A stretch of 47,185 nt of DNA, taken from positions 1 through 47,185 of the forward strand of contig NJBI01000026.1 of assembly GCA_005222975.1 (NCBI GenBank), read 5' to 3'. Under the pieces are notes generated by a model. The model saw nothing but the letters and a program-made list of their open reading frames with translations. It ran no database searches and was not told the DNA's origin. The position numbers and the translations under genes are program-made. This document shows positions 34,089 to 38,857 of the stretch, piece after piece (position 1 is the first letter of the stretch; the number at the start of each line of letters is the position of its first letter). The DNA comes from Promethearchaeota archaeon Loki_b31 (GTDB lineage: Archaea; Asgardarchaeota; Lokiarchaeia; Sigyniarchaeales; SOKP01).

Positions 34089-34724
34089 TTGGATTTTGAA
34101 AAATTAACAGAATTAATAATTGAGCTAGAAGTAGATGATATTGAAGCCGCAGTGAAGGAAGCCCTAGAAGGAGATGGAAAGGATCCATTTGACATCTTAA
34201 GCGCTTTAACAAAAGGAATGGATGAAGTAGGGAAGCGATATGAAGAGAAGGAATATTATTTAACTGAGCTGGTATTAGCTGGGGAAACCATGAAAGAAGC
34301 GTTTAAAGTGCTCCAACCAGCCTTAGCTGCGTCAGACCAATCTCAAGATAAAACAAAAATAATCCTCTGCACAGTTAAGGGGGACAATCATGACATCGGA
34401 AAAAATATTTTAGGCTCATTATTATTAAGTAGTGGTTTTGAATTACATGATTTGGGGATGGATGTTGATGCAAATGTCATCGTTGATAAAGTAAAAGAAA
34501 CAGGAGCTACAATCATAGCGTTAAGTTCCCTATTGACTATGACTGTCGAACAAATTAAAAACGTTCACGAAGCTTTAAAGGCAGCAGGTCTTAGGGATAG
34601 TGTAAAATTAATCGTTGGCGGAGCTCCTTTGAATATGGAACTTGCTAAGCGGTTGGGCGCAGATGATTTCGCAGATGATGCTGTCGATGGAGTCAGGCAT
34701 ATTAAAAAGTTAGCAGGAAAATAA
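34089..34724 (+). CDS. Methyltransferase cognate corrinoid protein (MttC/MtbC/MtaC-like)
   Basis: Cap domain (GMDEVGKRYE..EYYL.EL), DxHxxG motif GDNHDIGKNI, LSSLLT, VGGAP. Confidence 0.9.
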   Translation: MDFEKLTELIIELEVDDIEAAVKEALEGDGKDPFDILSALTKGMDEVGKRYEEKEYYLTELVLAGETMKEAFKVLQPALAASDQSQDKTKIILCTVKGDNHDIGKNILGSLLLSSGFELHDLGMDVDANVIVDKVKETGATIIALSSLLTMTVEQIKNVHEALKAAGLRDSVKLIVGGAPLNMELAKRLGADDFADDAVDGVRHIKKLAGK

Positions 34725-34962
34725 TATGTTCATTCAATTTTTTATTTTTATACTTTTAACTTTGTAAATTTATGGTATACATTTTTTGATATTTATAATT
34801 TATAAAGTCGGTTTAAAAGAGATTCTATTTTATTCTTTTTATTACTGAGAAACTTAATTAAAATATAATGAGAATATTTATTTTACTAAGGAAAGTATAT
34901 CTCTTAGAACCAATCAAATAAAATTAATTCTATATGTTTATAAGAAAAAGGAGGCTTTTTTA

Positions 34963-35217
34963 ATGACTGGTGGAAAGGACAAGGAAATAAAATTTGATGC
35001 AGAATTAGATACGAGGGGATTATTTTGTCCAGAACCCATTTTTGAAGTAAGAACCTTTTCAGAATCTTTAGATATTGGTCAATGTTTTAAAGTTTTAGCT
35101 GATGATCCGGCAGCAGAAGAAGATTTGAAAAGGTGGGCAAAAAGAACTGGTACAGAGTTGGTTGAGTTTTTTAAAGATGGAGATGATCTAATATTTTACT
35201 TCAGAAAAAGGGAATAA
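34963..35217 (+). CDS. tusA: TusA/SirA-family sulfur carrier
   Basis: LDTRGLFCPEP, VLADDPAA..D...W. Confidence 0.88.
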   Translation: MTGGKDKEIKFDAELDTRGLFCPEPIFEVRTFSESLDIGQCFKVLADDPAAEEDLKRWAKRTGTELVEFFKDGDDLIFYFRKRE

Positions 35218-35249
35218 TGATTAGCTTGAAATTAAGGAGGGATTAAGTT

Positions 35250-36440
35250 ATGAGTATATATCTAGACAATCAGGCTGCAAGACCCGTGGACGCAAGAGTC
35301 GTGTCTGAAATGGTCCCATACTTTAATGAAAGATTTGCAAATCCAGCTTCTCTTCATTGCGATGGAGATATTGCTACAGATATTTTAGAGACATCACGAG
35401 AAAAAATTGCAAAGTTTGTAAATGCCTCTATTCCATCTGACATCCTATTTACATCTGGAGCGACCGAATCAAATAATCTGGCTTTAATAGGAGCTGCTAT
35501 GAGACAGAAGAAAAAAGGGAACCACATAATTATTTCTGAAATCGAACATATATCTATCTTAAACCTTGGGAAATATTTAGAAAGACAGGGGTTTAGAGTA
35601 AGCAGAGTTTCTGTAGATCGATTTGGTATCATTAGTTTAGATAAGCTTGAAAAGTTAATAACAGATGAGACAATTTTAATCTCAATATCAACGGCTAGTA
35701 ACGAAGTTGGCTCCCTGCAACCAACTGCTGAAATCAGTAGGATTGCTGCTGAAAAGGGGATATTATTTCATACTGACGCTGTTGCTAGTGAAAGCGTAGT
35801 TCCAATTGATGTTCAAAAAGTTCCGATAGATTTAATCACATTATCGTCTAACGATATTTACGGACCAAGAGGGGTTGGCGCGTTATACTTAAAAAAGGGA
35901 GTACGAGTTAACCCTATAATAATTGGTGGCGGTCAAGAAAGAGGTATGAGGTCAGGTTCTGAAAATATACCCGGTATCGTTGGGTTTGCTAAAGCCGCAG
36001 AGATTTTGAAGGAAGAAATGCCCAAAGAATCAGAAAATTTAAAAAAATTAAGAGATAAGTTGATTAAAGATATCTTGGAAACAATTCCTAAATCGCATTT
36101 AAACGGACATCCCGAAAAAAGACTTGCTCACAACGCACATTTTCGATTTGATTATATCGAAGGGGAATCGTTGATATTAACGCTAAAAGAACACAATATT
36201 GCTGCTGCTACAGGCTCAGCTTGTAGTTCAAAAACATTAGAGGCGTCTCATACATTAATTGCAATGGGTCTATTGCACGAAGAAGCACACGGTAGTCTAC
36301 TGGTTTCTTTAGGTAGAACTACTCGCGAGTCCGACATTGATAAGCTTATAGAAGTTTTACCAAACGAGGTAAAAAGGTTGAGAAAGTTATCTCCATTAAC
36401 GCCTCCAGAATTATTAAAAAAATATGATGAGGTAAAATAA
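35250..36440 (+). CDS. iscS: IscS/NifS cysteine desulfurase homologue with the PLP Schiff-base Lys replaced by Asp
   Basis: IYLDN, FTSGATESNN, EH.S, HTDAV, SSNDIYGPRGVG (usual SxHKxYGPKG), RSGSEN, GSACSS. Confidence 0.9.
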   Translation: MSIYLDNQAARPVDARVVSEMVPYFNERFANPASLHCDGDIATDILETSREKIAKFVNASIPSDILFTSGATESNNLALIGAAMRQKKKGNHIIISEIEHISILNLGKYLERQGFRVSRVSVDRFGIISLDKLEKLITDETILISISTASNEVGSLQPTAEISRIAAEKGILFHTDAVASESVVPIDVQKVPIDLITLSSNDIYGPRGVGALYLKKGVRVNPIIIGGGQERGMRSGSENIPGIVGFAKAAEILKEEMPKESENLKKLRDKLIKDILETIPKSHLNGHPEKRLAHNAHFRFDYIEGESLILTLKEHNIAAATGSACSSKTLEASHTLIAMGLLHEEAHGSLLVSLGRTTRESDIDKLIEVLPNEVKRLRKLSPLTPPELLKKYDEVK

Positions 36441-36444
36441 TAAA

Positions 36445-37239
36445 ATGAAATCTACTACATATTCAGACAAAGTATTAGAGCACTTCAAGAATCCTCGTAA
36501 CGTAGGTGAAATTGAAGATGCAGACGGAATTGGCCGAGTTGGAAACCCTGTTTGTGGAGATCTTATGTGGATCTACCTCAGGATTGCCAAAAATGAAAAA
36601 GGTGAAGAAATAATTAGCGATATTAAATTTAAAACATTCGGTTGTGGTTCAGCTGTTTCTACGTCATCAATGATTACTGAGATGGCAAAAGGCATGACTC
36701 TTGACGAAGCTTATAAAATCACGCGACAAAATGTTGCTGACGAATTAGATGGACTTCCTCCTATAAAAATGCACTGCTCTAATCTAGCTGCCGATGCTTT
36801 AAAAGCCGCAATCGATAACTATCGTTTAGGTACAGAACCAGAAATAGAGATCGTTACGTCTTGTCAATTAGATGTTAGGATAATACTCGGAATCGATGAC
36901 TTTCTTGGGAAAGGAGTCTATAAAGAAGTACCCGCGGATTTAGAAGAGTTTAGAGAAAAAAGAATTATTATAGTCGACTCGGGAGACGAATCTTTAGAGC
37001 TCGCACTTAAACTGACAGAATATACTGGAAGAGTAATTGTTGTAACTTCTGCAAAATCAGTTCCTGGCACTGTTGATTTGAGGAGAAAATTGAAGCATTC
37101 AGATGTAAAACTATTGCAAGAATCAGAATTGATTGAAATCAAAGGAGAGCTTGATGAAGTAGAAAAAATTGTTATACATGATTTCGATGAGGACGAGAAT
37201 TACGAGCTATTCGTTGATGTCGTAATAGTTTTAGATTGA
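36445..37239 (+). CDS. iscU: IscU/NifU scaffold fused to a degenerate thioredoxin-reductase-like NAD(P)-binding domain
   Basis: YSDKVLEHFKNPRNVG, GNPVCGD, FGCGSA, LPPIKMHC; C-terminal GKGVY...KRIIIVDSGDESLELALKL...ELFVDVVIV. Confidence 0.85.
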   Translation: MKSTTYSDKVLEHFKNPRNVGEIEDADGIGRVGNPVCGDLMWIYLRIAKNEKGEEIISDIKFKTFGCGSAVSTSSMITEMAKGMTLDEAYKITRQNVADELDGLPPIKMHCSNLAADALKAAIDNYRLGTEPEIEIVTSCQLDVRIILGIDDFLGKGVYKEVPADLEEFREKRIIIVDSGDESLELALKLTEYTGRVIVVTSAKSVPGTVDLRRKLKHSDVKLLQESELIEIKGELDEVEKIVIHDFDEDENYELFVDVVIVLD

Positions 37240-37420
37240 TGCTTTAAACGAATATAAGGATGATGAAATTATAGTAGTTTGCCATAGTGGGGCACGCTCG
37301 ATGATGGCAGCCCAATTACTGGTCAGAGAGGGATTTAAAGACGTTAGAAACTTAACATGTGGCATGATGATATGGCACCGGAATGGTTATCCTGTGTTGC
37401 CACCTAAAAAAGAATACTAG
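37235..37420 (+). pseudogene. C-terminal half of a rhodanese domain (absent from ORF track)
   Basis: The +1 frame relative to iscU reads IDALNEYKDDEIIVVCHSGARSMMAAQLLVREGFKDVRNLTCGMMIWHRNGYPV...; in-frame TAG at 37232-37234 directly upstream; no DVR/GHIPGA half. Confidence 0.8.
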
Positions 37421-37661
37421 AATTTACAAATTATAAAAAAATATTTTTAATTATTATTTTACCAAATCCCAGGAAATATCTTATAACAAGCGTTTTTTGT
37501 TGAAAATTTCTTCATACATGGTAATCGTCGTTGAAATTTAATTCTTAATCTAAAAATAGTTAGACAACATGATAGATTTTTTTTAAATTATAAGTATAAA
37601 ATTTTAAAGTTCGCGTAATAAATATATATTCAAATCCCTATAAATTTAAAAAAGTGATAAA

Positions 37662-38246
37662 ATGAACGAAACACCTAAAAAGTTATTTGCTGCTTATGTT
37701 GGCGAATCTCAAGCAAGAAATAGATATACATTCTTCGCATCGATAGCTAAAAAGGAAGGGTATGTATTAATATCGCGAATATTTCAAGAAACTGCCGATC
37801 AAGAGCGTGAACACGGTCTAAACTTTTATAAAATGCTCCAAGAATTCAAAAAGGAAGAGAATTTTGATGATTTCCTTGTTAATGAGATGTATCCTACGAC
37901 TTATGGAAAAACAATAGAAAATTTAAAATCCGCAGTTAATGGCGAAACAATGGAGTATACGAAACTATATCCGGATTTAGCTGATACCGCTGAAAAAGAG
38001 GGGTATCCTCATATTGCAGAAAGAACGCGCGCTATCGCTCGTGCAGAACAACATCATGCAGAACGTTACGGTAAACTGTTGAAATTAATTGGAGATGATG
38101 CGTTCTTTAAACGAGGAGAGAAAGTAGTGTGGGTCTGCCTTGAATGCGGCTACGAAGTAGAATTAGACGAGCTTCCAAAAGATTTTGATTGTCCGAGTTG
38201 TTCACATCCAAGGTCTTATTTCAGAAAGAAATGCGAAGTATTCTAA
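37662..38246 (+). CDS. rbr: Rubrerythrin
   Basis: GESQARNRY, QEREH, GE..EY..LYP, AEQHH, C-terminal CLECG...CPSC.HP..YF. Confidence 0.93.
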   Translation: MNETPKKLFAAYVGESQARNRYTFFASIAKKEGYVLISRIFQETADQEREHGLNFYKMLQEFKKEENFDDFLVNEMYPTTYGKTIENLKSAVNGETMEYTKLYPDLADTAEKEGYPHIAERTRAIARAEQHHAERYGKLLKLIGDDAFFKRGEKVVWVCLECGYEVELDELPKDFDCPSCSHPRSYFRKKCEVF

Positions 38247-38346
38247 ATTCCGAATATGTATTATAAAACTTAAGCAAAATAATTAAATATTAAACTTTCA
38301 ATTATTGGAAACAACTATTGACTAAAATAGCGATAGTGAAAGCGAT

Positions 38347-38733
38347 ATGAAACAAAAGGAAATATATAAATGTGAAATTTGTGGAAAAGTAATCGAAATC
38401 CTTAAACCAGGCGTACCTGATACCATCTGTTGTGGAAAACCAATGGTATCTATGGAAGAAAAGACTGCTGATTGGAAAGGAGAGAAACACGTTCCTAAAA
38501 TTACGATTGAAGGTAACAAAGTCACAGTTGATGTTGGCGTATCAATGGGAACTCCACACCCTATGACAGAAGAGCATTATATTATGTGGATTGAGTTAAT
38601 CTGCAAAGACAATTGTTATAAGCGCAAGTTTTTAAAACCTGGAGACGAACCTAAAGCTACGTTTGTTGTAGCAGATATTGATGTTGTAGGCGCCCGAGAA
38701 TATTGTAATTTACACGGTTTATGGAAGAGTTAA
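38347..38733 (+). CDS. dfx: Desulfoferrodoxin (2Fe superoxide reductase)
   Basis: YKCEICG...CCGKPM, EKHVP, HPMTEEHYI.WI, EYCNLHGLW. Confidence 0.93.
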   Translation: MKQKEIYKCEICGKVIEILKPGVPDTICCGKPMVSMEEKTADWKGEKHVPKITIEGNKVTVDVGVSMGTPHPMTEEHYIMWIELICKDNCYKRKFLKPGDEPKATFVVADIDVVGAREYCNLHGLWKS

Positions 38734-38857
38734 GTTTTATCTAAGTTAATTTTAATACTTTTTTTTATTTTTATTATTACATCAAATATTTTAGATTATT
38801 ATTGATTTTCTAATGTATATTTATTAAGTTATAAAATAGAAGGAAATTGCCAATATT

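Follow-up and report, generated by a model that had tools for sequence, protein, structure and literature searches.

How can a protein pair that assembles iron-sulfur (Fe-S) clusters obtain its sulfur when its desulfurase-like partner has lost the lysine of the pyridoxal 5'-phosphate (PLP) site? This question is raised by an operon of Promethearchaeota archaeon Loki_b31 (assembly GCA_005222975.1), located on contig NJBI01000026.1, of which positions 1 to 47,185 of the forward strand were analysed as one stretch of 47,185 nucleotides (hereafter the window). On the plus strand between positions 34963 and 37420, tusA, iscS, an open reading frame (ORF) for a fusion of IscU with a thioredoxin reductase (TrxR)-like domain and a frame matching rhodanese are arranged head to tail, with gaps of 32 bp between tusA and iscS and of 4 bp between iscS and the IscU fusion. 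GGAGG ribosome-binding motifs stand ahead of both tusA and iscS. The tight linkage of the first three genes had been pointed out in a first-pass annotation, which proposed a cysteine-independent relay delivering sulfur through TusA and rhodanese to an IscS-IscU scaffold. The best explanation of the whole, regarded here as fairly probable, is a Lokiarchaeial copy of the archaeal IscS/IscU (MisS/MisU) pair of the kind known from Archaeoglobus fulgidus, fed by a persulfide relay of TusA and DsrE. The relay proposed earlier survives in part: the IscS is of a type without desulfurase activity and is linked to tusA, but the rhodanese turned out to be the scar of a deletion.

In the IscS protein, the His-Lys of the PLP site is replaced by N201-D202 (codons 35850-35855), and the mobile-loop Cys325 (36222-36224, GSACSS) is retained, both as previously noticed. 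Asp202 was invariant in 13 of the 13 other cluster orthologues aligned, which come from 13 genomes of the order; N201, C325, H100 and D176 are likewise invariant in the orthologues across the order. The closest solved structure was that of A. fulgidus IscS2 (4EB5_A, E 2.5e-131, over 380 residues). The SSNDIYGP motif is identical to that of the wild-type A. fulgidus protein and D202 aligns with D199 of 4EB5_A, while PDB entry 4R5F is the D199K variant of the same IscS2. A. fulgidus IscS, with its Asp199, is without desulfurase activity and its loop cysteine ligates a [2Fe-2S] cluster on IscU (PMC7585200, PMC8918507); IscS1 of Methanosarcina acetivorans is likewise without the lysine (PMC7585200). 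The lack of activity and the formation of an (IscS-IscU)2 complex are documented for the A. fulgidus protein alone (PMC7585200, PMC8918507). By homology, the lysine-to-aspartate IscS is assigned to this already described type and is not new. Since IscS of this type was shown to be without desulfurase activity, a cysteine-independent sulfur supply is a reasonable expectation. In a review from 2022, cluster assembly without desulfurase in A. fulgidus was listed as an open question, with sulfide as a hypothesis (PMC8918507).

The adjacency of candidate sulfur carriers was investigated in a linkage survey, in which one genome per species was scanned with an alignment of these IscS proteins and 80 loci were returned. 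Lysine-less IscS (SSND, SAND and one SANE) were encoded at 23 of the 80 loci. At each of the 21 having upstream sequence, tusA was located directly upstream, and dsrE was present in most cases as well. In contrast, neither tusA nor dsrE was detected within 4 kb of lysine-bearing IscS (0/57 loci). The co-occurrence test suggested in the first-pass annotation was thus clearly positive for tusA and dsrE. The lysine-less loci are labelled Promethearchaeota (Loki), Thorarchaeota, Bathyarchaeia, Hadesarchaea, Methanosarcinales and Methanocellales, and some of them Actinomycetota, Nitrospinota and Spirochaetota. The link of tusA, dsrE or both with lysine-less iscS extends over several archaeal phyla. 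A quick maximum-likelihood tree, which took in the orthologues L020, L041 and L093 (80-89% identical to the window IscS) and left out the window's own row, united the 27 rows without the lysine in a single clade (SH-aLRT 99). The 17 rows of a subclade labelled Promethearchaeota (Loki), Thor or Actinomycetota group together (SH-aLRT 99), and their loci carry the IscU fusion.

A few of these loci deserve a separate remark. Locus L093 (DATKTW010000107.1), labelled Candidatus Nanopelagicaceae (Actinomycetota), displays the full Lokiarchaeial synteny and 88% protein identity to the window IscS; almost certainly, a contig of Lokiarchaeial origin was mis-binned in this case. Loci L046, L047, L049, L050 and L054 (14-264 kb, Actinomycetota/Thermoleophilia labels) show the arrangement tusA-(dsrE)-iscS(D or E)-IscU fusion. 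The position of these IscS inside the Asgard subclade suggests horizontal transfer or mis-binning. In L054, Glu occupies the lysine position.

The TusA of the window gave a full-length match to Pfam PF01206 (Table 1). Its CPxP cysteine motif is present as CPEP, as had been claimed, and is kept in 13 orthologues. The score against the NCBIfam equivalog model of E. coli-type TusA (44 bits) is below the cut-off of 78. Across the order, the cluster is arranged as tusA-dsrE-iscS(D)-IscU fusion, and dsrE was lost from the operon position in the window's own lineage. A DsrE orthologue was identified elsewhere in the same genome (C83:97898-98254, minus strand), with 83% identity to the cluster DsrE of genome G018. 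The surrounding region C83:94575-101953 contains three small DsrEFH/TusBCD-like ORFs, a TusA-like ORF (88 aa), a ThiF/MoeB-like E1, a PP-loop ATPase-like ORF and a small ThiS/MoaD-like ORF, names which come from reading of the sequences. Together, these putative genes would form a second cluster for sulfur relay or thiolation.

The corresponding locus of A. fulgidus was located by its own peptide motif in a single-contig genome (G247, 2,178,400 bp), whose IscS is identical to 4EB5_A in 381 of 382 residues. A DsrE-family ORF (Pfam 2.4e-18) ends 9 nt upstream of iscS2. In this DsrE-family frame (L124:5476-5826), no ATG, GTG or TTG occurs until codon 24 of the stop-to-stop frame, and the conserved N-terminal DsrE motif precedes the first ATG, which suggests that the gene starts at an unusual codon or is truncated.

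The scaffold of the window is a two-domain protein. In the IscU domain, Cys37, Asp39, Cys67, His110 and Cys111 were invariant in 15 orthologues, in agreement with the three retained cysteines reported earlier, and matches to IscU proteins of the PDB reach 2e-51. An AlphaFold model of the fusion (pLDDT 83, with a disordered linker at 134-144) shows IscU in the N-terminal part, superposing on A. fulgidus IscU (4EB5_C) at a root-mean-square deviation of 1.0 Å (Foldseek E 1e-16 against IscU structures), and the NADPH domain of several thioredoxin reductases in the C-terminal part (Foldseek about 1e-10). For residues 149-261, a weak match to the NADPH-binding region of TrxR was obtained (positions 119-231 of TIGR01292; Table 1), and PDB matches of this domain to TrxR reach 2e-7. 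Neither an FAD domain nor the CxxC is present, and the domain does not qualify as TrxB. The loss of the CxxC had been reported before; the Gly-rich loop is also degenerate (GGGDSA to DSGDES), one Gly alone being widely retained, and the HRR phosphate motif, or Arg pair for binding of the 2'-phosphate, is missing. The fused domain is acidic (isoelectric point 4.5), with D248-E249 invariant inside a DEDE-type acidic stretch. Taken together, the domain is predicted to derive from the NADPH-binding domain of a low-molecular-weight (low-Mr) thioredoxin reductase, as a domain relic and not a reductase. Binding of NAD(P)H appears unlikely, and this acidic Rossmann-like domain is read as a putative docking or assembly module.

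The fusion is widely conserved. It was full-length in 21 of the 24 other genomes sampled in the genus, extends with 53-61% identity to another three families of the order, and was found across Lokiarchaeia, on contigs labelled Thorarchaeota and on some contigs labelled as bacteria. The fused IscU, part of the co-occurrence test suggested in the first-pass annotation, is conserved. A search of 1.8 billion protein cluster representatives with the fused domain delivered about 32 representatives at E<1e-10, and all eight of those inspected were IscU fusions or fragments thereof. The closest full enzymes are TrxR-like proteins without CxxC. A different scaffold extension was seen in a metagenome-assembled genome of the Methanosarcinales (L059:4419-5747), where the IscU homologue is contained in a 443-aa ORF after tusA-dsrE-iscS(D).

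The first-pass annotation had also proposed to look for another lysine-containing desulfurase or for SufB. Neither a SufB-family gene nor a second IscS was found in the window's assembly, and relatives carry elsewhere a lysine-bearing IscS (SAHKLYGP), a stand-alone IscU of 120 aa and a SufB-like gene. Contig C12 starts inside a P-type ATPase gene, as seen by comparison of C12:1-2720 with L034 (G017:C34). In genome G017, the P-type ATPase gene is located about 3 kb downstream of the stand-alone IscU and 7 kb downstream of the lysine-bearing IscS. Because C12 begins just downstream of where the locus sits in G017, the missing second Fe-S locus is most likely an assembly gap at a contig end. The idea of the operon as sole Fe-S system, drawn from these absences, was withdrawn. 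Since relatives have the lysine-bearing IscS, the stand-alone IscU and the SufB-like gene, the operon is probably one of several Fe-S systems in the lineage. Furthermore, a 575-aa class-V aminotransferase with both Lys (SPHKF) and Cys (AGCMCAG) is encoded at C63:33140-34864 (minus strand). It is distantly SufS-like (TIGR01979 3e-38, far under the cut-off), and might serve as an alternative desulfurase. Contigs C30 and C74 carry two IscU-like paralogues (146-147 aa).

Following these findings, a scheme for sulfur delivery can be proposed. IscS(D202) would be unable to desulfurate cysteine and would act as structural partner of IscU, with Cys325 as persulfide acceptor or cluster ligand. Sulfane sulfur would arrive as protein persulfide on TusA. 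DsrE may be a further carrier; its gene is part of the operon in relatives and lies elsewhere in the present genome. Transfer from TusA/DsrE to Cys325 would be the reverse of the IscS-to-TusA direction of E. coli, and Cys325 would pass the persulfide to IscU or share the nascent cluster with it. Such a relay from TusA/DsrE over Cys325 to IscU is considered plausible from the conserved neighbourhood and cysteines. As a tentative extension, held with less than even confidence, the lysine-less pairs of anaerobic archaea, including that of A. fulgidus, may all be fed by persulfides on TusA and/or DsrE loading the loop cysteine of IscS, and in Lokiarchaeia and their relatives the degenerate TrxR domain fused to IscU may be an adaptor through which the carriers, or a donor of electrons or iron, are recruited to the scaffold.

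Several observations weigh against this scheme. Gene adjacency gives no direction of sulfur transfer, and the connection between TusA/DsrE and IscS(D) is drawn from gene neighbourhood. Because the lysine-less IscS form one clade, the count of 21/21 reflects one old inherited linkage that was retained and not many independent gains. No tusA was detected within 5 kb of A. fulgidus iscS2, so that a sulfur carrier is present there too but TusA is neither universal nor obligatory. The docking or assembly function attributed to the fused domain is deduced from the loss of motifs. As relatives also possess a lysine-bearing IscS, a plain IscU and a SufB-like gene, the role of the operon may be specialised, for example in stress, rubrerythrin and desulfoferrodoxin being adjoining genes, rather than general. 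Finally, free sulfide, the published hypothesis, may suffice.

The main rival builds on this last point: free sulfide would feed IscS(D)-IscU, and TusA/DsrE would do other jobs at the locus, such as accepting sulfur or a cluster-derived product downstream, buffering or detoxifying persulfides, or serving thiolation of tRNA or cofactors. It has been put forward for A. fulgidus (PMC8918507), where the missing tusA would fit, and sulfide is usable by minimal archaeal systems (PMC13066941). The thiolation-type genes (ThiF/MoeB-like, PP-loop ATPase, TusA-like) beside the DsrE orthologue on C83 are also in line with it. However, tusA, dsrE or both have remained linked to lysine-less iscS through deep divergence, whereas the lysine-bearing iscS loci lack this linkage. 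Such a pattern is difficult to account for with carriers that have nothing to do with the lost desulfurase activity. Feeding by sulfide is judged rather unlikely.

The persulfide relay favoured here does without the rhodanese with CHSGARS that the first-pass annotation saw overlapping iscU. The frame and the motif are indeed present, but they do not constitute a gene. The frame matches positions 58-101 of the 102 positions of the rhodanese profile, which is not a complete domain. It extends over 61 codons in the +1 frame relative to iscU, with two in-frame TAG stops just upstream. No ATG, GTG or TTG occurs before its cysteine codon, and the sole ORF listed there starts at 37301, after that codon. 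In addition, Cys has taken the place of one Gly in the conserved GG motif.

The origin of the remnant was revealed by three sister genomes, 92-94% identical to the window at DNA level over the region. Their gene order is corrinoid protein, tusA, iscS(D), IscU fusion, a spacer of 140-170 bp, a gene for a 790-aa protein and then, where the contig continues, rubrerythrin. Compared with the intact gene of genome G005, the remnant shows 86-90% identity to residues 727-790. By blastn, window positions 35306-37237 correspond to 2-1933 of L014 and window positions 37235-38800 to 4277-5851 of L014. In comparison with the sister genomes, 2,335-2,362 bp are missing from the window, and the two flanks share only ATT. 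Lost with them were the final three codons (YRL) of the IscU fusion, which in the sister genomes is 267 aa long and ends with YRL. Among the 120 best homologues listed, the 264-aa end is unique to the window protein, nearly all others having 267 aa. The half rhodanese is what a 2.3-kb deletion left of a gene for a CoA-disulfide reductase-rhodanese-TusA-rhodanese protein, and not a working member of the relay.

The intact 790-aa protein, a flavoenzyme resembling CoA-disulfide reductase, consists of Pyr_redox_2, a dimerisation domain, a rhodanese, a TusA domain and a second rhodanese, with conserved cysteines at 43, 514, 589 and 745. Its match to the CoA-disulfide reductase model TIGR03385 (7e-159, 529 bits) is just under the cut-off of 579. 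The gene adjoins the operon in part of the genus only. Because it is not beside the operon in other families of the order nor in at least one genome of this genus (G016), the deleted multidomain reductase, which may have been an accessory persulfide feeder or reductase, would be dispensable.

An assembly or binning artefact, with the organism still carrying the intact 790-aa gene, has to be considered, as the source genome is metagenome-assembled (99 contigs, 92% complete, 6% contamination) and the junction was matched in no other assembly among the genome and metagenome contig collections. Against this stands the junction itself: three shared bases are far under the k-mer overlap required before an assembler connects paths that are unrelated, and reads spanning the junction must presumably exist. 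Moreover, no second copy of the 790-aa gene was found in the window's assembly. We consider that at least a fraction of the population really carries the deletion, because a join over three shared bases is not what assembler error produces, and regard an artefact as improbable.

That the half rhodanese is nevertheless a functioning member of the relay, translated alone, in overlap with the IscU fusion or through a frameshift from it, is hardly credible: its CHSGARS loop is intact and its frame runs open across the iscU stop, but the missing start codon and the upstream TAG stops, the truncated profile match, the altered GG motif, the complete gene at the same place in the sister genomes and the microhomology junction seen in the window's assembly alone all contradict it. 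Two specific variants were examined and rejected. A programmed +1 frameshift giving a fused IscU-rhodanese protein is contradicted by the relatives, in which a stop and a spacer precede a separate 790-aa gene, and an independent small gene by the lack of a start before the cysteine and by the half domain.

The coordinates of all features are given in Table 1. The misS-misU pair is adjacent, and none of the ISC accessory genes (hscBA, fdx, iscA, iscR) is among its neighbours, which are tusA, the corrinoid protein, rubrerythrin and desulfoferrodoxin; this corresponds to the definition of the MIS system. The AT-rich spacer of 238 bp (34725-34962) between the corrinoid-protein gene and tusA is likely the promoter region of the operon.

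Table 1. Features of the lysine-less iscS operon and its surroundings in the window.
Feature	Position	Strand	Evidence and remarks
B12-binding corrinoid protein	34089-34724	+	Pfam B12-binding, B12-binding_2; upstream neighbour, genus-wide synteny
tusA, sulfur carrier with CPEP, 84 aa	34963-35217	+	Pfam TusA 6e-19
Lysine-less IscS/MisS homologue, 396 aa	35250-36440	+	Aminotran_5 2e-72; NifS/IscS models
Whole IscU-TrxR-like fusion ORF, 264 aa	36445-37239	+	NifU_N and weak Pyr_redox/TrxR match
IscU/MisU scaffold domain, fusion residues 1-130	36445-36834	+	NifU_N 3.5e-45
Predicted TrxR-derived C-terminal domain, fusion residues ~149-264	36889-37236	+	TIGR01292 2.3e-11
Deletion junction, 3-bp microhomology ATT	37235-37237	.	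blastn against sister genomes
Non-coding rhodanese remnant with CHSGARS	37235-37420	+	3' end of the deleted 790-aa gene
Rubrerythrin	37662-38246	+	Pfam; downstream neighbour, genus-wide synteny
Desulfoferrodoxin	38347-38733	+	Pfam; after rubrerythrin in relatives whose loci extend that far

The presence of TusA/DsrE beside every lysine-less IscS sampled provides concrete candidate sulfur donors for the question left open for A. fulgidus (PMC8918507). According to a review from 2026, MIS is the Fe-S system that has been studied least, and its electron donors are unknown (PMC13066941); the conserved fusion of IscU with a TrxR relic points to a further component of the system. The window also delivers a caution, as one of its four supposedly non-canonical parts is a deletion scar. 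No prior description of tusA/dsrE beside lysine-less iscS, or of the IscU-TrxR fusion, was found in the open literature, subscription journals being outside the scope of the search. What is new for this window is the deletion scar and the relocation of dsrE.

Comparison with known systems places the parts of the operon at different distances from their models. CoA-disulfide reductase-rhodanese fusions of the NADH-dependent persulfide reductase type resemble the deleted neighbour only, with which they share the active-site Cys43 and C-terminal rhodanese domains; the 790-aa protein differs by its additional TusA domain and second rhodanese. The low-Mr TrxR and the TrxR-type ferredoxin-NADP reductases have in common with the fused C-terminal domain the fold of the NADPH domain and a detectable sequence similarity, whereas the FAD domain, CxxC, intact GGGDSA and HRR are missing from the latter.

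The relay of E. coli IscS and TusA (PDB 3LVJ) and the cascades of TusA, DsrE and rhodanese in sulfur oxidisers (PMC11094781) use carrier families with conserved cysteines, which are encoded beside a class-I IscS-type protein as in the present locus. In E. coli, however, an active IscS delivers to TusA, and the reverse flow would be required if the Loki IscS cannot make persulfide. The Loki locus is without Hdr-like or Dsr genes.

The MIS system (MisS/MisU; Garcia et al., reviewed in PMC13066941) is closer. It likewise consists of a desulfurase-like and IscU-like gene pair without chaperones, carriers or ferredoxin; the Loki archaeon is an anaerobe, and its relatives also have an SMS-type SufB-like gene. 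It was described without additional components and with unknown electron donors (PMC13066941), whereas the Loki pair has sulfur carriers as fixed neighbours and a fusion protein as scaffold.

The closest relative is the IscS2-IscU pair of A. fulgidus (4EB5, 4EB7, 4HVK; D199K variant 4R5F), a pair that was studied biochemically, whereas the Asgard proteins are known here from their sequences. Both have Asp in place of the PLP lysine within an identical SSNDIYGP, a retained loop cysteine, iscU immediately downstream of iscS and a sulfur-carrier gene immediately upstream. This carrier gene is tusA in the Loki window and dsrE in A. fulgidus, and the 156-aa IscU ORF of A. fulgidus contrasts with the Loki IscU, to which a C-terminal domain of 130 residues, predicted to derive from TrxR, has been added.

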